This document shows, in pieces, positions 33,263-56,872 of a DNA stretch of 64,000 nt. Position 1 is the stretch's first letter, and each line of letters starts with the position of its first letter. The DNA is from Shigella phage Sf19: sequence record MF327005, one strand, 5' to 3'. A program made the translations under genes and the position numbers. The notes under the pieces are model-generated. The model saw only the letters and a list, made by a program, of their open reading frames with translations. It was not told the origin of the DNA and did no database searches.

Positions 33263-34303
33263 ATGGAACAATACACCTTAACAAAGCTCCCAGAGAGCGT
33301 TACACACGTCTTTATTGACTCTGATAGCATTGCTTACAAAGGTGCTTGTGTAGTTGAAAAAGCAAAGTACAAGTATGTGAATAAAATCACTGCTGAAGAA
33401 TCCGACGCTTTTGATAGTGCAAAACTGGCAGCACAATGGCTGTCTGACCAAAGAGTTTTAACTGAAGAGTTAGGACTTGACTTTGATGAAGATGAATGGG
33501 AAAGACAGACTTGGAAGGAGGCTAAGAGTGAAGCTGAAGCAATTATGGCTACACAGCAAGTTCTTCAGGAGTGGTTGAAAGTCGTTGGTAAAGAACGCAA
33601 ATGGATGGGTTACCTTACTGAGAAAGGTGTTCACAAACACAAGGATATCAAAGGTCTTGAACACCAATACCAAGGTAACAGAAAAGAAGCTGTAACACCT
33701 ACACACCTAGTTGCTTGTCGTGAGTATCTTCTGTCACGACCAGAGTTTAAGCTCCTAAAGGGGGGCTTCGAAGCAGACTCTATCGTTATTGCAAAAGCTG
33801 AGAAGATGGGTAAAAAAGCTGCTCTGATGAGTATTGATAAAGACCTTCGTCAAGCTGAAGGAACTTACTGTATTGATATGACTTACGAGAAAGCTCCATT
33901 AATTTTCATTGCAGATAATAACGTTGGTGAGATTTGGGATTGCCCTATCAAATCTAAACCGAAAGCTAAGAAGACAGTCGGAGTAGGTTTTAAATTCCTC
34001 TGCTATCAAGCTGTAGCAGGTGATAATGCAGATAACTACTTCGGTTTAAAAGGTGCTGGTAAGGTTGCAGTGATGAATGCACTGGAAGGTAAAACTACCT
34101 ACAAAGAGTGCTTAGACGCAATCTATGAGCTTTATGCTAAGAAAGAGTCATACACCTATGAATCATGGGATGGTCAGATTGTGACAAGAACTCCACTAGA
34201 ATTAATGGAGCAACACTTCTGGATTGCTTATCAAGAACGAAATCCTAAAGATGATTTTACGTTTAAAAAATACAATTGGGAGCCAGTTATGAATGAAGAT
34301 TAA
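33263..34303 (+). CDS. 5'-3' exonuclease / flap endonuclease (RNase H-like, FEN family)
   Basis: FEN-like acidic blocks VFIDSDSIAY, MSIDKDLRQ, AVAGDNADNY; start set at ATG 33263 (GGAGAG upstream). Confidence 0.6.
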   Translation: MEQYTLTKLPESVTHVFIDSDSIAYKGACVVEKAKYKYVNKITAEESDAFDSAKLAAQWLSDQRVLTEELGLDFDEDEWERQTWKEAKSEAEAIMATQQVLQEWLKVVGKERKWMGYLTEKGVHKHKDIKGLEHQYQGNRKEAVTPTHLVACREYLLSRPEFKLLKGGFEADSIVIAKAEKMGKKAALMSIDKDLRQAEGTYCIDMTYEKAPLIFIADNNVGEIWDCPIKSKPKAKKTVGVGFKFLCYQAVAGDNADNYFGLKGAGKVAVMNALEGKTTYKECLDAIYELYAKKESYTYESWDGQIVTRTPLELMEQHFWIAYQERNPKDDFTFKKYNWEPVMNED

Positions 34304-34793
34304 AGGATTTGGAAATTGCCCTGTTTATGGACATTGGGTTTCACTGTGCGGGGAAATTGACCCCGCTAACTATTTTGGTTTTGTCTATTTAGTATACTGT
34401 AAGAAAACTGGACAATATTATATTGGAAAGAAACAATTTAATAACGTCACTAAGAAAAAGGTTGCTGGAAAGACCAGACGTAAAGTCGTGACAAAAGAAA
34501 GTGATTGGATGACTTATCAAACATCTTCTGAATACATTAAGAAAGATATTGAATCTTTTGGTGAAAAAGAGTTTGACTTCTACATCATCCAGACTTACTA
34601 TACGCGAGGTGGCTTAGTTTATGGCGAAGCTAACCTACAACATAAGTTTGACGTCATGACAAAAAGGATTGACTCTAAGCTTCGACTCTTCTACAATGCA
34701 AACATTGCAGCAATCAAGTTTCTTACAAAAGAGACTTATGATGAAGCTGAGAAGAGAATCACTAAAATCATGAAACTTAATGAGAGAGTTTAA
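34293..34793 (+). CDS. GIY-YIG-like endonuclease (possible homing endonuclease)
   Basis: N-terminal FVYLVYCKKTGQYYIGKK resembles GIY-x(10)-YIG; ~166 aa. Confidence 0.45.
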   Translation: MKIKGFGNCPVYGHWVSLCGEIDPANYFGFVYLVYCKKTGQYYIGKKQFNNVTKKKVAGKTRRKVVTKESDWMTYQTSSEYIKKDIESFGEKEFDFYIIQTYYTRGGLVYGEANLQHKFDVMTKRIDSKLRLFYNANIAAIKFLTKETYDEAEKRITKIMKLNERV

Positions 34794-34794
34794 A

Positions 34795-35010
34795 ATGTTT
34801 AATAAAATCAAAAATGACCATGTTTCTAAAATCCAGAGTGGTGTAGCAGCACTGAAGGAAACTATCAGTAAAGCTAAGTCAGCTACAGAAGCTGAGATGG
34901 ATGCTCTGGAATCACAAATTCAACATCTGTTAAGCAAACGTGTTGAACTCAAAGAACGAATGGACTATATTGAGTCTCAACAAAAGTTGTTTGAAGATAA
35001 GGAGGCTTAA
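34795..35010 (+). CDS. hypothetical small coiled-coil protein
   Basis: Start moved to ATG 34795 (GAGAG upstream). Confidence 0.4.
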   Translation: MFNKIKNDHVSKIQSGVAALKETISKAKSATEAEMDALESQIQHLLSKRVELKERMDYIESQQKLFEDKEA

Positions 35011-35765
35011 TGTTTAATTCCAGAGAATCCGTAAGAAATTGGAATCTACGTTGTGGCAATAATCCAAAAGAACCATACAGCACAGAGTATTGGGAATCAC
35101 TGAAAAGCCAATCTCTGTGTATGCTTGAAGAAGCTAGAGAGTTAGTCGCAGCAGTAGAAGCCAAAGACCCTGTTGAGACCCTTGATGCTCAAGCTGATTT
35201 GCAGTATGTACTTGATGGTTTAATTTTCCTGACACAACATGACCATGATGGTGCTATCAAGGCTGTTTGTGAAAACAACAACCTCAAATACACAGACGAC
35301 TATCAAGAAGCTCTACAGCGAATGTTTGATATTGAGAAACGTACTGGTGATGAATGTTACCTGCGTCAATCAATCATCGAAGGTAAAGAGTGGTTTGCGA
35401 TTATTCGCAAGTCTGATGGTAAGATTATGAAACAGTCTAATCTTCCAAAAGTTCAACTTGAAAGTTTTATTGCAGAAGTTGACGCAAAAGAATTATTTGT
35501 GGTAACATCTGACACATGCGTTATCTGCCAAGGACTGATTGGAAGTCTTGGTAGTCTTGGCATTAAAAACTTTTCTAAAGTTGAACCAATCTCTTCAAAA
35601 GCAGATAAAGATTTCTGCCGTGAGAATGGATTATGGCTTGCGGATATTGTGTACTATGATGGTGAGAAGTTCCATGTAACCTCATATCCGAAATTGAATT
35701 ATGATGCAATCAACCTCAAGCAGTGGTTGAAAGGAGTCGGTTATAATGGATTCACAGAACATTAA
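35010..35765 (+). CDS. MazG-like nucleotide pyrophosphohydrolase domain protein
   Basis: N-terminal EEARELVAAVEAKDPVETLDAQADLQYVL matches all-alpha NTP-PPase (E..E...E..D) pattern. Confidence 0.45.
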   Translation: MFNSRESVRNWNLRCGNNPKEPYSTEYWESLKSQSLCMLEEARELVAAVEAKDPVETLDAQADLQYVLDGLIFLTQHDHDGAIKAVCENNNLKYTDDYQEALQRMFDIEKRTGDECYLRQSIIEGKEWFAIIRKSDGKIMKQSNLPKVQLESFIAEVDAKELFVVTSDTCVICQGLIGSLGSLGIKNFSKVEPISSKADKDFCRENGLWLADIVYYDGEKFHVTSYPKLNYDAINLKQWLKGVGYNGFTEH

Positions 35766-44584: not shown

Positions 44585-44896
44585 ATGGAAAAGATTTATA
44601 ACACTCGTAAAATTCAGATTTCTATCCTGTGCCAGTTTATGGCTGATAAACACAAATCCCACTATTGTGGTACAGGTTTCCTTACTTTAGGTGGTGGCTA
44701 CATTAGCTTTAAAGAAGCTGTGAAGATGTACAACGAGCACCCTGAAGATGACAAAGAGTTGAAACAACTGAAGCTTACTTATGACAAGAAGCATAAGAAA
44801 ATTGTATGCTTGAACAACCTTATCAAGCCAACTGAAAACGTTTATGATGCAATTGGTGAGGAAGGTTTCTTAAAAGTCTTGAAAATAGCTCAGTAA
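44585..44896 (+). CDS. hypothetical protein
   Basis: 103-aa ORF. Confidence 0.45.
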   Translation: MEKIYNTRKIQISILCQFMADKHKSHYCGTGFLTLGGGYISFKEAVKMYNEHPEDDKELKQLKLTYDKKHKKIVCLNNLIKPTENVYDAIGEEGFLKVLKIAQ

Positions 44897-44909
44897 ACGT
44901 ATATGATTA

Positions 44910-44934
44910 GGGAACTGTAAAAGGTTCCCTTTTT
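44910..44934 (+). terminator. rho-independent terminator
   Basis: GGGAAC-TGTAAAAG-GTTCCC followed by TTTTT. Confidence 0.6.
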
Positions 44935-44948
44935 ATTTTGGAGAAATC

Positions 44949-45464
44949 ATGTACCATTCAAATCTGAAACGTGCTGCTGCAATGTCTGTTCTTCGTCTTG
45001 ATTTTGATGAGCGTCAAGAGTTCATCGAGTCACATCAGTATGACCCTTCAAATTCTAATCACATGGTGCTTTGGAATCGTGGTAAGTTCCGTGATAGTGC
45101 CTTGTTCCAGTACTACCCTCATTACACTATTGACAACCTCTATGAATACTGCGTTGTCAAGAACACTATTGCAACCCTTAATAAGCTTTGTAGATATTCT
45201 GGAAAGAAAGCTTTCACATTAGGCCACCATAAGCCCGTGACAAAAGGTGGAGAGCACCATTGCTCGAACTGGTTTATCCAGACTCAAGAAGATAACCAGA
45301 AGCAGGGAGAGAAGCTTCCAGAAGCCCCTAAGATGACTTGGGAGGAACAGAAAGCATATCTCAAAAATAATATGCCACCAATGCTTGACAGGGAATATGC
45401 AGTTCTGGCAATATCACTCTTGTTGAAGCTTGAGACAGTTTATGAGGCAACTTATCATGGCTAG
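44949..45464 (+). CDS. HNH endonuclease-like protein
   Basis: HHKPVTKGGEHHCSNWFIQTQEDNQKQG resembles the HNH His/Asn core. Confidence 0.45.
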   Translation: MYHSNLKRAAAMSVLRLDFDERQEFIESHQYDPSNSNHMVLWNRGKFRDSALFQYYPHYTIDNLYEYCVVKNTIATLNKLCRYSGKKAFTLGHHKPVTKGGEHHCSNWFIQTQEDNQKQGEKLPEAPKMTWEEQKAYLKNNMPPMLDREYAVLAISLLLKLETVYEATYHG

Positions 45465-45735
45465 AGAACAATGGGATATCAAAGAGCTTATTAGCGAAGC
45501 TGGAAATGGTAGTGAGATGTATATGATACGTGGTCACGTCCCAGATGCACTTGCTATTGAGATGATAGACCACTACTCCAACGGATTCTATAAAGAGTTT
45601 GGAGAGCCAAATATTGAACGTACTTGGACAAAACCAGTACCAGACGGAACAGGAAACTGTTCAGTTATCTACCACATTGTAGACCCAAAGAAATGTAAAT
45701 CAGCTATGGCTGTAACATTTGTAACTTTTGACTGA
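45457..45735 (+). CDS. hypothetical protein
   Basis: Start set at ATG 45457 overlapping upstream stop. Confidence 0.4.
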   Translation: MAREQWDIKELISEAGNGSEMYMIRGHVPDALAIEMIDHYSNGFYKEFGEPNIERTWTKPVPDGTGNCSVIYHIVDPKKCKSAMAVTFVTFD

Positions 45736-45745
45736 GAGATATATT

Positions 45746-46627
45746 ATGAAAACTACTATTCGAGTTCTACTTAATTCAAATTCCAAAGGTTCTCATCAAG
45801 AGACCTTCAACATTATCCAGTTCCCTTCTGGGGAGATTGGTGGTAACTTCTCAGAAGACTTAGTAGGCTTTGTTGAACATGCTGCTGGTAAGATTGAAAA
45901 TGTTATCTTCACTGTACAAGGTTATGACAAAGACACACTCTTTGCATTGGCTATGGCTAAAGAGGCTATTGACCGCTTGATTCCTCAGAAAGCAACCATG
46001 AAAACTGTTCTTTTTGGATTCTTACCAAATGCTCGCTATGACCGTCACATGTTTAAAGGTGATGCAGCAGCACTTAAAGTCTTTGCAAATCTTGTAAATG
46101 CTATGGAGTTCGATGCAGTATGTGCTCTGGATACTCACAGTAATGTTGCAGAGAATTTGTTTAAGAGCTTCTACAACCTCCCTCAAAAAGAGGCAGCAGT
46201 CCACTTTGCAAGTGACCCACGCATTGATTACTTAGTGGCTCCAGATGCAGGTGCAGCTAAGAAGACTGAAGAGGCTGCTAAAGAGGTTGAGAAACCTTAT
46301 ATTACAATGGCGAAGGTACGAAACCTGAAAACTGGTGAAATCACTGGTATGCGCATCCTTGATGATGTAGACTTAACAGGTAAGACTGTTATGATTCTGG
46401 ATGATATCTGTGATGGTGGTCGAACCTTTATCGAGGCTGCAAAGTATCTTCGTGAAGCTGGAGCAGAACGTGTAGAGCTTTATGTTACTCATGGGATTTT
46501 CTCTAAAGGTGTTGAAAATCTCCTTGACAATGGTATCGACCATATCTACACTACAAACTCACTAGGGGATGAAAAAGACCGTGGTCTTTCCCACTTCTCA
46601 CAAGTGACCGTAGCAAATATTGAATAA
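45746..46627 (+). CDS. ribose-phosphate pyrophosphokinase-like protein (PRPP synthetase family)
   Basis: PRTase loop VMILDDICDGGRT, FPSGE (cf. Prs RFSDGE), DTHS (cf. DLHA); start set at ATG 45746. Confidence 0.6.
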   Translation: MKTTIRVLLNSNSKGSHQETFNIIQFPSGEIGGNFSEDLVGFVEHAAGKIENVIFTVQGYDKDTLFALAMAKEAIDRLIPQKATMKTVLFGFLPNARYDRHMFKGDAAALKVFANLVNAMEFDAVCALDTHSNVAENLFKSFYNLPQKEAAVHFASDPRIDYLVAPDAGAAKKTEEAAKEVEKPYITMAKVRNLKTGEITGMRILDDVDLTGKTVMILDDICDGGRTFIEAAKYLREAGAERVELYVTHGIFSKGVENLLDNGIDHIYTTNSLGDEKDRGLSHFSQVTVANIE

Positions 46628-46635
46628 CAACTTTA

Positions 46636-46651
46636 GGGGCTGAAAAGCCCC
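46636..46651 (+). other. GC hairpin GGGGCT-GAAA-AGCCCC between the two NAD-pathway genes
   Basis: Perfect 6-bp stem with GNRA-type loop; no T-run, so function unclear. Confidence 0.35.
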
Positions 46652-46671
46652 ACTTTGAGAGAGATAAAAAG

Positions 46672-48489
46672 ATGACTAAATCAATCTATGCAGTACCAGC
46701 AGGTCTTAATGCAGATGCTTATAAAGCGGGTCATATCTATCAGTATCCAGATGCTACACAGTATCTTATGTTGAACTTAACACCTCGTGGAGATAAATGG
46801 TTTAACTCTCCGTTAGAGATTGATGGTGTTGTAGCTTTTGGTATTCAGCGTTTTGTAAAAGACTATCTGGTAGACCACTGGAATGCAACGTTCTTTGAAC
46901 GTGATAAGAAAGAAGCCATTGACGAAATCTTGGAAATCATGAATGGTGTCCTTGGTGCAGATGCTATTGGTCGTCAACATTGGGAAGAACTTCATGACTT
47001 GGGTTACCTGCCTGTTGAAGTCTACTCTGTAGAGGAAGGTACAATTGTCCCTATGCGTGTCCCGATGATTGTCTTCAAAAACACTGTAGAAGGATTCCAT
47101 TGGGTAGCTGGTTATCTTGAAGATGCTTTCTCTGCTGAAATCTGGAAGGCTTGTACGATTGCAACTATTGCACTGCATTACAAACGTATCTGTAAGCAAT
47201 GGGCTGATAAGACCTGTGACAATGACTTCCATTTACCTTGGCAGTGTCATGACTTTGCAATGCGTGGTATGTCTGGCTTCACAGATGATGCGTTTAACGC
47301 AGTAGGTCACCTGACAAGTTTTAAAGGTACTGACAGCTTCCCTGCTGTATATACAGCTAAACGTGCATATGGTCAGTTTATGAATGTAGGTGAGATTGGT
47401 AACTCTGTCCCGGCTACTGAGCACTCTGTGATGTGTGCAAACATCTCATGGAACAGTCTTAACAAAGAGGTAAGTGATTGGCATCTATCGCATTCTGACA
47501 ACTTACTTGATGCAATGCGTTGGCGTGGTGAGGTAGAAACTTTCCATCGCCTTCTGACAGAAGTTTACCCAACTGGTATTGCAAGTGCCGTATCAGATAC
47601 TTACAACTTCTGGCGTACTGTTACACAGATTCTGCCAGAGCTACGTAATGTAATCCTGAATCGTGATGGTAAGTTGGTAATCCGTCCAGACTCTGGAGAC
47701 CCTGTTCACATTGTCACAGGTTACAAAGCCATTGAATGGGAAACTGCTAAGTCAATGTTCTATAAGCACATGAAAGAGCTTGCACCGAACAATACACATC
47801 TGCATGACACAATCTTGAATTGTGAAATGTCTGATATTGGCTTTGGGTTCTCTGCTTGGCTAATCTCTGAAGGTTATGAGATGGTTGTTGATAAAGAAGA
47901 TTTTGAATCTGCTGATACAATCAACCTTATTACTGCTCAGAAGACTGGACAGTTTACTGTGAAGCGTATGCTGACAGCAGAAATTGACGGAGCTATCCAC
48001 ACGCTGTATAACATCTTTGGTGGCACTGTTAACTCCAAAGGGTACAAAGTACTGGATGAGCACATTGGGCTAATCTACGGTGATTCTATCACTCTGGAAA
48101 GGGCTAATGAGATTCTGTCACGTCTTGCTGATAAAGGTTTTGCAAGTTCTAACGTAGTGTTTGGTGTAGGCTCATACACCTATCAGTACCTGACTCGTGA
48201 CACCTTTGCATTTGCTGTTAAAGCAACTCTTGCACAGATGGATGGTCAAGAAATTATGCTGGCTAAAGACCCTAAAACTGACAGTGGTCTTAAGAAGTCT
48301 GCTTTTGGTGGAGTTGTCCCTATGTGGGATGGTGACAAGCTGGTAGCTGTAGATGGTTTTGGCTTTGCAGAGTTTGAAGGTGCAATTGACAACTGTCATA
48401 GTGCTTTGAAACTGGTATTTAGCAACTCGCAACCTTATGGTTACATTAACCTGCGCGATGTTCGAAATACTATTGACAAGCAACTTTAA
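46672..48489 (+). CDS. nadV: nicotinamide phosphoribosyltransferase-like protein (NAMPT/NadV family)
   Basis: Blocks matching NAMPT as recalled: HDFAMRGMSG, FKGTDS, VPATEHSV, VSDTYN, VIRPDSGDP, YGDSI, FGVGSYTYQYLTRD. Confidence 0.85.
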   Translation: MTKSIYAVPAGLNADAYKAGHIYQYPDATQYLMLNLTPRGDKWFNSPLEIDGVVAFGIQRFVKDYLVDHWNATFFERDKKEAIDEILEIMNGVLGADAIGRQHWEELHDLGYLPVEVYSVEEGTIVPMRVPMIVFKNTVEGFHWVAGYLEDAFSAEIWKACTIATIALHYKRICKQWADKTCDNDFHLPWQCHDFAMRGMSGFTDDAFNAVGHLTSFKGTDSFPAVYTAKRAYGQFMNVGEIGNSVPATEHSVMCANISWNSLNKEVSDWHLSHSDNLLDAMRWRGEVETFHRLLTEVYPTGIASAVSDTYNFWRTVTQILPELRNVILNRDGKLVIRPDSGDPVHIVTGYKAIEWETAKSMFYKHMKELAPNNTHLHDTILNCEMSDIGFGFSAWLISEGYEMVVDKEDFESADTINLITAQKTGQFTVKRMLTAEIDGAIHTLYNIFGGTVNSKGYKVLDEHIGLIYGDSITLERANEILSRLADKGFASSNVVFGVGSYTYQYLTRDTFAFAVKATLAQMDGQEIMLAKDPKTDSGLKKSAFGGVVPMWDGDKLVAVDGFGFAEFEGAIDNCHSALKLVFSNSQPYGYINLRDVRNTIDKQL

Positions 48490-48503
48490 AACAGTATGAT
48501 AAG

Positions 48504-48525
48504 AGGCTCCTACGGGAGCCTTTTT
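48504..48525 (+). terminator. rho-independent terminator
   Basis: AGGCTCC-TACG-GGAGCCT followed by TTTTT. Confidence 0.65.
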
Positions 48526-48542
48526 AATTTGTGGAGATTACT

Positions 48543-48878
48543 ATGAAAATTAAACAGATGAATGTTAATTTAATCATTGAAGAACGTTGGGAAAACATTA
48601 AGCGTCCTGAAGATGGTCATAAGTTTATCAATGAACTGTTTCAAGCAGCACAATCAGAGTTAGCTTCTGAGATTTATACAACGGTTACTTTGAAGGTCTA
48701 TATCAAAGGTCTTCCACAGAACCATCAAGAAGCTCTTGATTTGTTTCAAGAAAGGTTTTACAATCCAAACAAAAAGATACTTGAGAATAGTTTTGCAGTA
48801 TCTTCGAGTATTGTTCATGACAGGAGTTTTGTCCTATTCAGAACCATAGGAGATAAGGTATGCAAGGTTATTGGTTAG
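48543..48878 (+). CDS. hypothetical protein
   Basis: Start set at ATG 48543 (GGAG upstream). Confidence 0.45.
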   Translation: MKIKQMNVNLIIEERWENIKRPEDGHKFINELFQAAQSELASEIYTTVTLKVYIKGLPQNHQEALDLFQERFYNPNKKILENSFAVSSSIVHDRSFVLFRTIGDKVCKVIG

Positions 48879-49039
48879 AGATTGTTCTTTCACTCGGTTG
48901 TATTGTTGCTTTTGCAGTGTTACTATGCAAGTACTTCTCAGAGACCGAACCTTGTGATGAGTGTGAAGGTTCTGGGGTAGTTGGTATAGGGCATTGTTGC
49001 CCTTACTGTAATGGAACTGGAAAGAAATTTAAAAAGTAA
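48860..49039 (+). CDS. small membrane zinc-ribbon peptide (below track threshold)
   Basis: 59-aa ORF with TM segment and CDEC...CPYC; AGGAG upstream. Confidence 0.3.
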   Translation: MQGYWLEIVLSLGCIVAFAVLLCKYFSETEPCDECEGSGVVGIGHCCPYCNGTGKKFKK

Positions 49040-49101
49040 CTTGACAGTGGCATCTATAAAATTATATAGTTTGCCACATCGACAACTAAGGAGATATTCT
49101 T

Positions 49102-50607
49102 ATGCGCATGGTAAATGACCACGCAACGGTAATTAAAAGCTCAAGTACACTGGAAACCTCTCAGGCTCAGATTAAGATGACACCTGAAATGTTCAGTCTT
49201 CTAAGCTCAGGTGTTTACACATATAAAGAACGTGCTGTAATTCGTGAATTGTCATGTAACGCAGTAGATGCTCACATTGATTCTGGTAACGTTGATAAAC
49301 CTTTCTTGGTTCACTTACCAACTCGTTTCGAGCCATTCTTTGAAGTTCGTGACTTTGGTACAGGACTGACTCATGATAAAGTTATGAAACTTTACATGAC
49401 CTATGGAGAATCTACAAAGAACGATTCAAACGACTACATTGGTGCTATGGGTATCGGTTCAAAGTCCCCATTTGCAATTGCTCAGTCATTCACTGTATCA
49501 AGCTATGTTGATGGTGTAGTTAACAAATACTCAGTTTACCTTGAGAATGGTATCCCTCAAGTAACTAAGTTGACTACTAACCCAACTACAGAGCCAAATG
49601 GTTTAGCTGTTCGAGTAGCGGTATCCGATAACCGTATCAACAAGTTTCATGAAGAAGCGAGCAATGTATACTCGTACTTTAAAGTTAAGCCAGAGTGTAA
49701 TGTTGAGTACTATGACATTCTTGAAGCAATGACTTCCATTTCTCGTGAAGATGGTGTCTATGATGCAATGAAGTACAAAGAGAACTGGCGTTCAAATAGT
49801 AACAGTGTCCATTTCAATGTAATCATGGGTAATATTGCTTATCCTGTTGAAATGGGTGAGTTGCTTGGTTCAGAGTTTACAAGCATTCTGCCTCAGTTCT
49901 TCCGTAGTGCTGTAGACCTTGTTAACATCTACATGCCAATTGGTTCAGTGGCTATTGCTGCATCTCGTGAAGCATTGCAGATGAATGAGACCACTAAGAC
50001 CAAGATTGTTGAAGCTGTGAAGAAAATCACTAAGACAATCGTAGAAGATGTGGTAAAAGAGATTGCTAACAAGCCAACTCTGATTGATGCTGCTCAAGCC
50101 TATGATACCATGAGGAAGGAGGCTCGTGAAATCTTTATTCACGTCCAAGATTCTCTGGAATGGCAAGGCCAGAACTTGAAAAAACTTGAACAAAAACTGT
50201 TAGGTATCCGTCGTGGTCAGTTAACTGAAGCAGATGGTTCTCCGTCATTCTTGAAAGATGATGCAGGTAACTTGAGGCTTGACAAAGATGGTAATCCAGT
50301 TCCTAATATTGGTAATCTGTATGAACCTGTAGCATACTACAAGTACAGCAGTCTGGAGAACCGTATTCGAGCAACTTCAGCAACTTATTCACAAGATGCA
50401 GCAATGTTTAGTATCTTTGGTGCAATGAGTAAAGATAAGTTGAGCAACTATTTGTTCCTTATCAATGACCGTCGAAACAAGAACGGGTCTGAGAAGACAA
50501 CTGGTAAAAACCAGATTATCCGTGGAGCTTGCCGTGACCGTGAACAGGAAGACTCTAACTTCCGTCGCTACAACGGTATTGCTTTCTTGTTCAGCAGTCA
50601 GCAGTAA
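49102..50607 (+). CDS. GHKL-ATPase domain protein, rIIA-like
   Basis: Bergerat-fold motifs: N-box ELSCNAVDA, G1 RDFGTGL, G2 GAMGIGSKS; rIIA assignment from memory. Confidence 0.5.
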   Translation: MRMVNDHATVIKSSSTLETSQAQIKMTPEMFSLLSSGVYTYKERAVIRELSCNAVDAHIDSGNVDKPFLVHLPTRFEPFFEVRDFGTGLTHDKVMKLYMTYGESTKNDSNDYIGAMGIGSKSPFAIAQSFTVSSYVDGVVNKYSVYLENGIPQVTKLTTNPTTEPNGLAVRVAVSDNRINKFHEEASNVYSYFKVKPECNVEYYDILEAMTSISREDGVYDAMKYKENWRSNSNSVHFNVIMGNIAYPVEMGELLGSEFTSILPQFFRSAVDLVNIYMPIGSVAIAASREALQMNETTKTKIVEAVKKITKTIVEDVVKEIANKPTLIDAAQAYDTMRKEAREIFIHVQDSLEWQGQNLKKLEQKLLGIRRGQLTEADGSPSFLKDDAGNLRLDKDGNPVPNIGNLYEPVAYYKYSSLENRIRATSATYSQDAAMFSIFGAMSKDKLSNYLFLINDRRNKNGSEKTTGKNQIIRGACRDREQEDSNFRRYNGIAFLFSSQQ

Positions 50608-50631
50608 TTCGATGAGTTTGTAGATTTGCAT

Positions 50632-51474
50632 ATGCTTGACAAGAGTCTGTTAAGTGTGCATACAATGTCATCTAAAGAGCACCACTATGAGAAACGTACT
50701 ATTGTACGTGGTGTTGTAAAACTGTATAAAGCATTTATATGTCCAAATACTGACATGATTCGCTATACAGAGGTTAAAGAGAACTTTGATGAGATTGAAG
50801 AACCACAACTGTATATCAAAGCACAGAGTGATGAAGTGATTGGTGGAATCTTCTCATGTTCACCAGAACGTGCTGCAACGTTGATGACAGAGTTAACTGG
50901 ACAGTCAGTTTATGTCTTCCGTAAAGCCAACTGGAAAAAGATTCCTGAAGACTGGACAGAAGTCAATGAACAAGTGATGAAAGATTTTATTGATAATACT
51001 CATTGGATTGAGTATCACCGTTACTTGACTCACCAATATATGACTAATAATCATGATATCACTGATTGTAATGTGATTTCTCGAAACTTTATGTTTGCTG
51101 ATAAGCGTAAGTCCAGAGGCCACATTTACAGTAAAGACTTTAAGAAGACTATTTTCTTAGAGGGGAATGAAGAGGCTATAGAAGCAATGTTTGGACGCTT
51201 GGCATATACTGCTGCACCAGTTGCTTACAAAGATATTACCAGCACTCTTGATACCATTCGTAGGAATATGAGAGGTTCTTGTAAGCCAAGAAAGGTTCTG
51301 GATAATGCTAAGAAGCGTCTTGAAAGCAAGTTCAAAGATTACTTTGAGAAACGCCGTAAAGAAAACTTCTTGCTTTCTAATCTGGATTGGAATAAAGTAT
51401 CACCAGTCGAAGTTGGTAAGTTTTTAGGTTTTGACACTAAGAGCATTCCAGAAGATACTGTATGCTGGGATTAA
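50632..51474 (+). CDS. hypothetical protein (possible rIIB-like partner)
   Basis: 282-aa ORF directly downstream of rIIA-like gene; start uncertain (ATG 50632 or 50665). Confidence 0.35.
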   Translation: MLDKSLLSVHTMSSKEHHYEKRTIVRGVVKLYKAFICPNTDMIRYTEVKENFDEIEEPQLYIKAQSDEVIGGIFSCSPERAATLMTELTGQSVYVFRKANWKKIPEDWTEVNEQVMKDFIDNTHWIEYHRYLTHQYMTNNHDITDCNVISRNFMFADKRKSRGHIYSKDFKKTIFLEGNEEAIEAMFGRLAYTAAPVAYKDITSTLDTIRRNMRGSCKPRKVLDNAKKRLESKFKDYFEKRRKENFLLSNLDWNKVSPVEVGKFLGFDTKSIPEDTVCWD

Positions 51475-55883: not shown

Positions 55884-56076
55884 TTTCTGCACTAAGTGTT
55901 CTGTTGAGATGTTTGGAAAAGATACAGGAGACTTAAAAGGTCTCTTTACAAAAGCAGAGTTTGAAGCTGGTTCAGCAATGCCAGTAATCTGTGAAGGCTG
56001 TGGTGCTTTATGGGTAGACCATGAAGGTAACCGAGTTAAACCCTCTGAAGATAACGAACGTTGGGAGCATTACTAA
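55876..56076 (+). CDS. small zinc-ribbon protein
   Basis: 66 aa with CTKCS...CEGCG. Confidence 0.4.
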   Translation: MADFCTKCSVEMFGKDTGDLKGLFTKAEFEAGSAMPVICEGCGALWVDHEGNRVKPSEDNERWEHY

Positions 56077-56077
56077 T

Positions 56078-56872
56078 ATGGGTATCGTAAAAATTATTAA
56101 AGGTGATATCTTTAAAGACTTTGATGGTAAGAAGTTTGATATCATTGGTCACGGTTGTAACTGCATGAACTTGATGGGTTCAGGTATCGCAGCAACAATT
56201 GCTAAACGCTACCCAAAAGCTTATGAAACTGACGCTGAGGTTTATGCTACAGTAGGTGGTGAAAATCATAACCCTAAGCACCTAATGCTTGGTAACATCT
56301 CTGTAGCACGTTTTAAGCAGGGTCGGATTGCTAACCTTTATACTCAGGTTATCACTGGCAAAGATGCACGGTACAATGCTTTAGAAGCAGCTTTGCAGCG
56401 TCTGAATAATTACTGCAAAGTCAACCAACTTAAGAAAGTTGGGCTTCCTATGATTTGTGCAGGGATTGGTGGTCTTGATAGTATGGCTGTGCTGTCCATT
56501 ATTAATCAGACTATGAAAGATGTTGACGTATATATGTATGTCTATGAAGATAAGATGTACAGTCAGTTGACTAGTCCTGTTACTGGTTGGGAGAACTTCA
56601 GTGAGCCTCAATATTTTGATGGTGTTGCTGTGGTAGGCAAGGATAAAGTTACCCTCAAGGTGAAGCGTAATGGCAAGGTACACACCAGTTACCCTCCGGT
56701 TGAGAAGTACAATCGAAGTAACGCTCAAGTTACCCACCCGTTACAAGGTCACCACCACAGAGCGGTAACGTTTGGTGATGATGCAAGTGTGTATATCAAT
56801 GCGACTACAGAAGAGTTTGCAGAAGATTATATCACACATGAAAACGTAAACTATGTTGAAGCACGTAACTAA
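56078..56872 (+). CDS. macro-domain-like protein with C-terminal extension
   Basis: IIKGDIF...FDIIGHGCNCMNLMGSGIAATIAKRYP matches macro pattern (GDIT...NAAN...GGGVA.AI) loosely; start set at ATG 56078. Confidence 0.45.
   Translation: MGIVKIIKGDIFKDFDGKKFDIIGHGCNCMNLMGSGIAATIAKRYPKAYETDAEVYATVGGENHNPKHLMLGNISVARFKQGRIANLYTQVITGKDARYNALEAALQRLNNYCKVNQLKKVGLPMICAGIGGLDSMAVLSIINQTMKDVDVYMYVYEDKMYSQLTSPVTGWENFSEPQYFDGVAVVGKDKVTLKVKRNGKVHTSYPPVEKYNRSNAQVTHPLQGHHHRAVTFGDDASVYINATTEEFAEDYITHENVNYVEARN

Follow-up and report, generated by a model that had tools for sequence, protein, structure and literature searches.

The 64,000 nucleotide (nt) stretch of Shigella phage Sf19 DNA considered here (sequence record MF327005; henceforth the window) is the sequence of an Ounavirinae (Mooglevirus) phage, and contains two adjacent genes, adps and namat, which in all likelihood constitute a NARP1 counter-defence operon. 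The two genes, as delineated by the open reading frame (ORF) list and by Pfam and PHROG matches, are the following:

45746..46627, + strand: adps, coding for a Prs-family ADP-ribose pyrophosphate synthetase (Adps) of 293 amino acids (aa)
46672..48489, + strand: namat, coding for a NAMPT-family nicotinamide ADP-ribose transferase (Namat) of 605 aa

The NARP1 system comprises Adps and Namat, and first came to light in the BASEL phage Bas63 (JohannRWettstein; Felixounavirus) as "operon 79-80", which bears exactly the same Pfam annotations as the window pair (bioRxiv 10.1101/2024.02.11.579819). In the present phage its action would be triggered by a host defence such as SIR2-HerA, DSR1/2, type I Thoeris, SEFIR or a similar system, which splits nicotinamide adenine dinucleotide (NAD+) into ADP-ribose (ADPR) and nicotinamide. 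Adps would then transfer pyrophosphate from ATP to the terminal ribose of ADPR, giving ADPR-pyrophosphate (ADPR-PP), and in the reaction predicted for Namat nicotinamide would replace the pyrophosphate of ADPR-PP, yielding NAD+ directly. Such a route would dispense with both the nicotinamide mononucleotide (NMN) intermediate and an adenylyltransferase.

In the ORF list the first of the two genes is entered as 45728..46627 (+), with an in-frame TTG at 45728 as an alternative start; the in-frame ATG at 45746, which is also the start annotated in Shigella phage Sf17 and in Bas63, gives the 293 aa protein beginning with MKTTIRV. This protein displays an FPSGE motif at aa 26-30 (nt 45821-45835), a DTHS motif at aa 129-132 (nt 46130-46141) and a DDICDGGRT motif at aa 219-227 (nt 46400-46426), so that the ORF list and translations bear out the initial annotation, which had placed both ORFs and these motifs at the same coordinates. 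Its remarks on protein length also hold: the Prs-like protein is shorter than canonical Prs (293 aa versus 315 aa in E. coli Prs) and the NAMPT-like protein is longer than typical NadV (605 aa versus 491-496 aa in the solved Namat/NadV chains). All Pfam matches lie above the gathering cut-offs, namely PF00156 (2.2e-11) and PF14572 (1.1e-10) for Adps, and PF04095 (4.8e-32) and PF18127 (1.4e-5) for Namat. Among the PHROGs, Adps matches phrog_619 (2e-99), the ribose-phosphate pyrophosphokinase family, and Namat matches phrog_448 (1.6e-199), the nicotinamide phosphoribosyltransferase family. These family matches are far beyond chance, and a chance pair of ORFs is ruled out.

Comparison with Bas63 (MZ501086) ties the window pair to the founding member of the system. 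Adps is 81% identical to Bas63_0079, with 293/293 aa aligned and no gaps, and Namat is 76% identical to Bas63_0080, which is 593 aa long. The gene order is likewise common to the two phages, running through nrdG, small ORFs, a 171 aa ORF, a 92 aa ORF, adps, namat, further small ORFs, rIIA and rIIB. Both belong to Ounavirinae and have in common the neighbours of the operon, two insertions in Namat, the Lys-Trp pair in its SCL loop and the stem of an intergenic hairpin (the last three described below). The differences are those of genus (Mooglevirus for the window, Felixounavirus for Bas63) and of Namat length, the window protein being 12 aa longer by virtue of a longer first insertion (aa 258-286). 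By these comparisons of sequence and synteny, the window genes are orthologues of Bas63 g79/g80, on which the definition of NARP1 was based.

Closer relatives place the pair within a lineage that has already been catalogued. Across bases 45000-49500 the window shares 99.3% identity with Escherichia phage vB_EcoM_3HA14 and 99.0% with Sf17, and 261 related records were recovered, nearly all of them from Ounavirinae of Escherichia, Salmonella, Shigella and Citrobacter. The window Namat is 100% identical to Sf17 gp106, and Adps differs from Sf17 gp105 at 4 residues. Table S1 of the NARP1 study lists the 3HA14, Sf17, Michonne and Bas63 proteins as Adps homologues, with the entry 'Namat within 10 genes: Yes', and its Table S2 gives 'Adps-associated' as the genomic environment of the corresponding Namat homologues (bioRxiv 10.1101/2024.02.11.579819). 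Thus, the NARP1 of this lineage is already known and stands in the published catalogue; public records still name the two genes "ribose-phosphate pyrophosphokinase" and "nicotinamide/nicotinate phosphoribosyltransferase". As a separate observation on these relatives, the region 48490-49100 of the window is mosaic with respect to them: namat and the rII genes are Sf17-like, while directly 3' of namat the window lacks a ~212 nt segment of Sf17 (gp107) and is collinear with 3HA14, the alignment of this region being in two pieces for Sf17 and in one piece for 3HA14.

The published functional data on the orthologues bear both on NARP1 and on the most obvious rival to it, classical salvage, in which the Prs-like protein would make phosphoribosyl pyrophosphate (PRPP) from ribose-5-phosphate and the NAMPT-like protein would make NMN, which the host NadR or PncC/NadD would carry on to NAD+. 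The database names and the Pfam and NCBIfam assignments, which are those of Prs and NAMPT/NAPRT, speak for such a pathway. However, Bas63 lacking genes 79-80 becomes sensitive to SIR2-HerA, and the effect of the two genes against this defence is kept in a pncC nadR double-deletion host, i.e. neither PncC nor NadR is needed (bioRxiv 10.1101/2024.02.11.579819). The enzymes of Bacillus phage SPbetaL1 point the same way: in vitro its Adps converts ADPR and ATP to ADPR-PP and gives no product of the PRPP synthetase type, its Namat converts ADPR-PP and nicotinamide to NAD+ in preference to using PRPP and forms only NAD+ when offered both donors, and a K162A mutant of its Adps is inactive (bioRxiv 10.1101/2024.02.11.579819). 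Overall, in vitro activities have been shown only for the enzymes of SPbetaL1, Paenibacillus and DyoEdafos, and the in vivo activity of Bas63 by metabolomics. In the independent PhageMaP study, loss of either g79 or g80 from Bas63 lowers plating on Sir2-HerA cells 10^4-10^6-fold, with weaker effects of g79/g80 on the Ec86 retron and hhe (bioRxiv 10.1101/2024.10.10.617714). Further, a Namat homologue adjoins adps in 97% of the Adps clade.

The sequence of Adps itself also speaks against classical salvage. It falls below every NCBIfam Prs equivalog cut-off (e.g. 105.7 bits versus a required 296) and passes only the broad subfamily model TIGR01251 (128.5 bits versus 113); NCBIfam holds only generic Prs and NAPRT models and no dedicated Adps or Namat models. 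A four-way alignment shows that the catalytic lysine of the window protein, K190, aligns with K162 of SPbetaL1 Adps and with K194 of E. coli Prs. Given its 81% identity to Bas63 Adps, the listing of the Sf17 and 3HA14 proteins in Table S1 and the failed equivalog cut-offs, the window protein appears to belong to the phage Adps clade, apart from the housekeeping Prs enzymes. Its similarity to the biochemically characterized SPbetaL1 Adps (WIT26982.1; 33% identity, 90.5 bits) and to E. coli Prs (27.5% identity, 68.6 bits) is low in both cases; hence, its functional assignment rests mainly on Bas63. A sequence search of the PDB recovered archaeal Prs enzymes as the closest solved structures (E ~1e-17), and no Adps structure was among its solved-structure matches.

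The clearest features distinguishing Namat from NAMPT are found in the second protein, whose residues were mapped through a HMMER alignment to PDB 9w5x. The top PDB sequence matches of the window Namat are 9w5w/9w5x (E 2.5e-125), which are the crystal structures of SPbetaL1 Namat (NAR 2026, PMC12774641). That study gives two marks that set Namat apart from NAMPT, the first being the SCH motif GS-X-phi-X-phi-X-phi-TRD, whose aromatic residues stack on the adenine and whose phi3 is 'mainly Asn/Val', and the second a variable SCL loop with Arg, Lys or Tyr as its third residue, the fourth residue being the one that stacks if the third is Lys or Tyr (PMC12774641). The window Namat contains the former as GSYTYQYLTRD (aa 500-510), with aromatic Y502 and Y506 and a Leu at phi3, and the Bas63 motif is the same except for a single residue (L507 in the window versus M in Bas63). 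Its SCL residues are K42-W43, identical to those of Bas63 (DKWFNSPL), and a stacking role is predicted for them from the sequence. The presence of this adenine-clamp motif, which is absent from NAMPT, is a further point against classical salvage.

The remainder of the active site is similarly conserved. The core residues F195, R198, D221, H251, R338 and D340 match F189, R192, D215, the catalytic His, R306 and D308 of SPbetaL1 Namat, and these positions are invariant in an alignment of 37 sequences. Of 22 positions mapped as contacting NAD+ or lying beside such contacts, 18 are identical to the SPbetaL1 Namat crystal structure, and the four that differ (K42, A196, S472 and Y502) are common to Bas63. 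An AlphaFold2 model built from the 37-sequence alignment is of high confidence (predicted local distance difference test score, pLDDT, 90.8; predicted template modelling score, pTM, 0.90). Its best Foldseek matches are again 9w5x/9w5w (target-normalised TM-score 0.95), followed by Haemophilus NadV and mammalian (including human) NAMPT. The comparison with canonical Prs and NAMPT on the one hand and the NAD+-rebuilding families on the other, which the initial annotation had proposed, was run and returned Namat structures as the best matches and failed Prs equivalogs.

Namat owes its length to two insertions that SPbetaL1 Namat lacks, as seen in the following alignment gaps:

47443..47529, + strand: first Namat insertion, aa 258-286, ~29 aa (gap in the alignment to SPbetaL1 Namat)
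47725..47988, + strand: second Namat insertion, an alpha/beta subdomain, aa 352-439, ~88 aa (gaps in the PDB and 37-sequence alignments)

The larger insertion is modelled confidently as a compact alpha/beta subdomain with elements spanning E353-H439 (pLDDT ~84-95, mostly 89-95), and is marked by a conserved GYE(M/L)VV motif; we came across no mention of it in the structural study of Namat (PMC12774641). Both insertions are also present in Bas63 Namat and in the wider set of 590-610 aa phage homologues, and are absent from SPbetaL1 Namat and from 496 aa bacterial homologues. The initial annotation had taken the unusual length as leaving the substrate specificity open. The greater length is confirmed, but the specificity is not left open by it, as the insertions are common to Bas63 and the residues specifying ADPR-PP are kept. 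In their own right, the 496 aa chromosomal homologues, found in Klebsiella, Phytobacter, Kosakonia, Kluyvera and Erwinia and ~45% identical to the window Namat, bear a GS(Y/F)TYQYNTRD motif though they are annotated as nicotinate phosphoribosyltransferases. This Namat-type motif fits the description of a 'bacterial NARP1' in PMC12774641.

A second alternative is a NARP2-type route, in which PRPP (supplied by the Prs-like protein), nicotinamide and ATP would be turned into NAD+ by a NAMPT together with a phage-encoded Nmnat. NARP2 (Nampt + Nmnat) is described in the NARP1 study from other phages, e.g. KVP40 with its NadV and NatV (bioRxiv 10.1101/2024.02.11.579819), and the window protein is indeed NAMPT-like. 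Against this, Pfam scans of ~30 ORFs of the 64 kb window, beyond which the phage genome extends for another ~25 kb, recovered no Nmnat/cytidylyltransferase, NadR or Nudix domain, in agreement with the initial annotation, which had recognized no NMN adenylyltransferase beside the pair. No Nmnat is annotated in the regions of Sf17 or Bas63 that were examined, and the near-identical Namat of the relatives is the one classed as 'Adps-associated' in the above-mentioned Table S2. The failure to find Nmnat, Nudix and NadR domains leaves both NARP2 and a self-sufficient classical route unsupported, and we regard the NARP2-type reading as having a negligible probability.

The genomic setting admits a third alternative, namely that extra PRPP and NAD+ boost phage DNA synthesis regardless of host immunity. 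The operon indeed follows nrdA, nrdB, nrdD and nrdG in a region devoted to nucleotide metabolism, as expected of a gene pair for general nucleotide supply. However, ADPR-PP was detected solely in wild-type Bas63 infection of cells carrying the defence system (bioRxiv 10.1101/2024.02.11.579819), and the reported phenotypes of the Bas63 79-80 deletion all come from defence-carrying hosts, making this explanation highly improbable.

Several points nevertheless weigh against the assignment of the window pair to NARP1. The evidence for activity and phenotype comes from orthologues of other lineages; Bas63 Adps did not purify, and the in vitro chemistry is that of SPbetaL1 proteins, which are 33% (Adps) and ~37% (Namat) identical to those of the window. 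By the bit scores given above, the window Adps is just modestly nearer to SPbetaL1 Adps than to E. coli Prs. Namat enzymes keep PRPP-dependent NMN synthesis in vitro (PMC12774641; bioRxiv 10.1101/2024.02.11.579819), and the window Namat might have some classical activity as well. Finally, Namat has the two insertions relative to its SPbetaL1 counterpart; these are present in the validated Bas63 Namat and hence furnish no argument against Namat function. Gene presence, orthology, synteny, the catalytic and specificity residues and the fold are all observed in the window. As the chemistry is taken from the SPbetaL1 enzymes and the anti-defence phenotype from the Bas63 deletions, we infer that the window proteins act likewise. 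Of the two readings offered by the initial annotation, the reconstitution of NAD+ by Adps and Namat is supported by the orthology to Bas63, the family-specific residues and the catalogued near-identical proteins. The other, classical PRPP/NMN salvage, is disfavoured by the pncC nadR result in the orthologues, the adenine clamp and the failed Prs equivalogs; having been largely refuted for the orthologues, it appears very unlikely for the window pair too.

Set against the known systems, the NARP1 of the window resembles that of SPbetaL1 in its two-gene Adps-Namat layout, the catalytic Lys, the Namat core, the GSX..TRD clamp motif and the fold. It differs in that SPbetaL1 Namat uses Arg40 as the stacking residue instead of the Lys-Trp of the window, and is devoid of the 29 aa and 88 aa insertions. 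With the NAMPT/NadV + Prs pairs and NARP2 (KVP40 NadV + NatV) it has in common the superfamilies and the chemistry of the nicotinamide-ribose bond, but departs from them in the adenine clamp, in the want of any Nmnat among the ORFs scanned and in an Adps below the equivalog thresholds; moreover, the orthologues of the window proteins act on ADPR and ADPR-PP.

The two genes probably form part of one transcription unit that extends from a terminator at 44909-44930 to a strong one at 48501-48524, and contains the 171 aa ORF, the 92 aa ORF, adps and namat. In addition to the genes listed above, its elements are:

44909..44930: terminator before the unit (terminator scan)
44949..45464, + strand: 171 aa ORF, phrog_3500
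45457..45735, + strand: 92 aa ORF, phrog_4726
46636..46651, + strand: intergenic hairpin GGGGCU-GAAA-AGCCCC (-12.8 kcal/mol, z = -3.4)
48501..48524, + strand: intrinsic terminator after namat (-18.2 kcal/mol, z = -4.5), with a U-run 3' of the stem

As no terminator separates the upstream ORFs from adps, they are likely to be on a shared transcript with it. The adps and namat genes are on the same strand with a spacer of 44 nt, in which the terminator scan detected no terminator. The hairpin within this spacer has a GNRA-type loop and is followed by only ACUUU (3-4 U); its stem is identical in Bas63, and its flanks differ. A weak attenuator is one possible role suggested by these features, and a part in RNA processing or stability is another.

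The 171 aa protein shares 76.6% identity with Bas63 gp77, which is reported to counter the Ec67 retron and has been described as a GIY-YIG protein (PhageMaP; bioRxiv 10.1101/2024.10.10.617714); our own domain scans of the window protein gave only weak HNH/IscB-like matches. The homology of this neighbour to an anti-retron protein suggests that the adps-namat region might be a small anti-defence cluster. The two upstream ORFs were also considered as NARP1 accessories, and this was rejected as linkage evidence is absent: the 92 aa protein is confined to Ounavirinae, and in rV5-like phages homologues of the 171 aa protein lie ~76 kb from Namat. Just upstream of the unit, 44585-44896 (+) encodes a DUF7390 protein, the equivalent of one labelled a putative homing endonuclease in Sf17.

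Two accessories of NARP1 are known, namely the Macro-domain phosphatase Adpp, which defines NARP1-AP (bioRxiv 10.64898/2026.01.28.702374), and the RyR-domain glycosidase RyDEP (bioRxiv 10.64898/2026.05.28.727677). A Pfam scan of the ORFs flanking the operon recovered neither a Macro (Adpp) nor a RyR (RyDEP) domain, and thus no Adpp lies within two genes of the operon, as it does in NARP1-AP. The only Macro domain in the scanned ORFs of the window is instead encoded ~7.6 kb (about a dozen ORFs) downstream of namat:

56078..56872, + strand: Macro-domain protein of 264 aa, candidate accessory (PF01661, 3.8e-7, above the cut-off)

The ORF spans 56021-56872, and translation probably begins at M20 (56078), which yields the 264 aa protein annotated in Sf17. 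It displays a Macro domain (~aa 1-165) followed by a beta-rich C-terminal region of ~100 aa, for which sequence and fold searches recovered no match. The closest parallel is with Vibrio phage Gary, whose NARP1-AP has the order Adps-Adpp-Namat; the window likewise encodes Adps, Namat and an Adpp-like Macro protein, but its Macro gene is outside the operon and the Macro protein has the additional C-terminal region. Vibrio phage Direpillow8 gp175, located between Adps and Namat and 94.3% identical to the validated Adpp of Gary, is 30% identical to the window Macro protein across its entire 158 aa. Identity of the window Adps and Namat homologues to those of Thalassavirus is 37%. The best PDB sequence match of the Macro protein is yeast Poa1p, an ADPR-1''-phosphate phosphatase. 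By fold, its Macro domain is about equally close to TARG1, DarG and Poa1p, and its best NCBIfam match is a sub-threshold one to DarG.

The Macro protein is conserved across Ounavirinae (bas63_0095 is 63% identical), and ~2,800 phage records, T4-like phages among them, contain matches to this Macro family; with such a wide distribution its presence is not specific evidence of a link to NARP1. On the other hand, the survey that described NARP1-AP looked only two genes to either side of NARP1 (bioRxiv 10.64898/2026.01.28.702374), so that unlinked Macro copies were not counted. It is conceivable, though on balance doubtful, that this phage and Ounavirinae in general possess a 'split' NARP1-AP, in which the Macro protein would dephosphorylate ADPR-1''-phosphate arising from aRES-type defences and thereby feed NARP1 in trans. 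An Adpp function of the Macro protein in trans is thus offered as a hypothesis from sequence comparisons; if the gene were functional in this capacity, the NARP1 of a large phage subfamily would cover aRES-type defences as well.

Certain other genes of the window merit a brief account. The rIIA homologue at 49102-51474 has an in-frame TAA at 50605-50607 in the place of a CAA (Gln) of Sf17, a single C-to-T change in surroundings that are otherwise essentially identical to Sf17, which results in a 501 aa N-terminal fragment and a 282 aa downstream ORF in the same frame. The stop is either a genuine nonsense variant or a sequencing error. As rIIA and rIIB of Bas63 (g84/g85) are reported to counter QatABCD, the truncation, if real, could matter. 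Farther upstream, 34293-34793 (+) encodes a SegE-like GIY-YIG homing endonuclease (PF19835, 1.1e-27), and 35010-35765 (+) a 251 aa protein whose N-terminal domain is that of a PRA-PH/MazG-like NTP pyrophosphohydrolase (PF01503, 7.3e-7).

In conclusion, the core finding leaves the current understanding of NARP1 unchanged, and its main value is one of correct annotation, in that the pair is to be described as a counter-defence module and not as a Prs + NAMPT salvage pathway. The presence of this module predicts resistance of the phage to NAD+-depleting systems of the SIR2, TIR and SEFIR types, which is relevant to the choice of therapy phages against Shigella, E. coli and Citrobacter.

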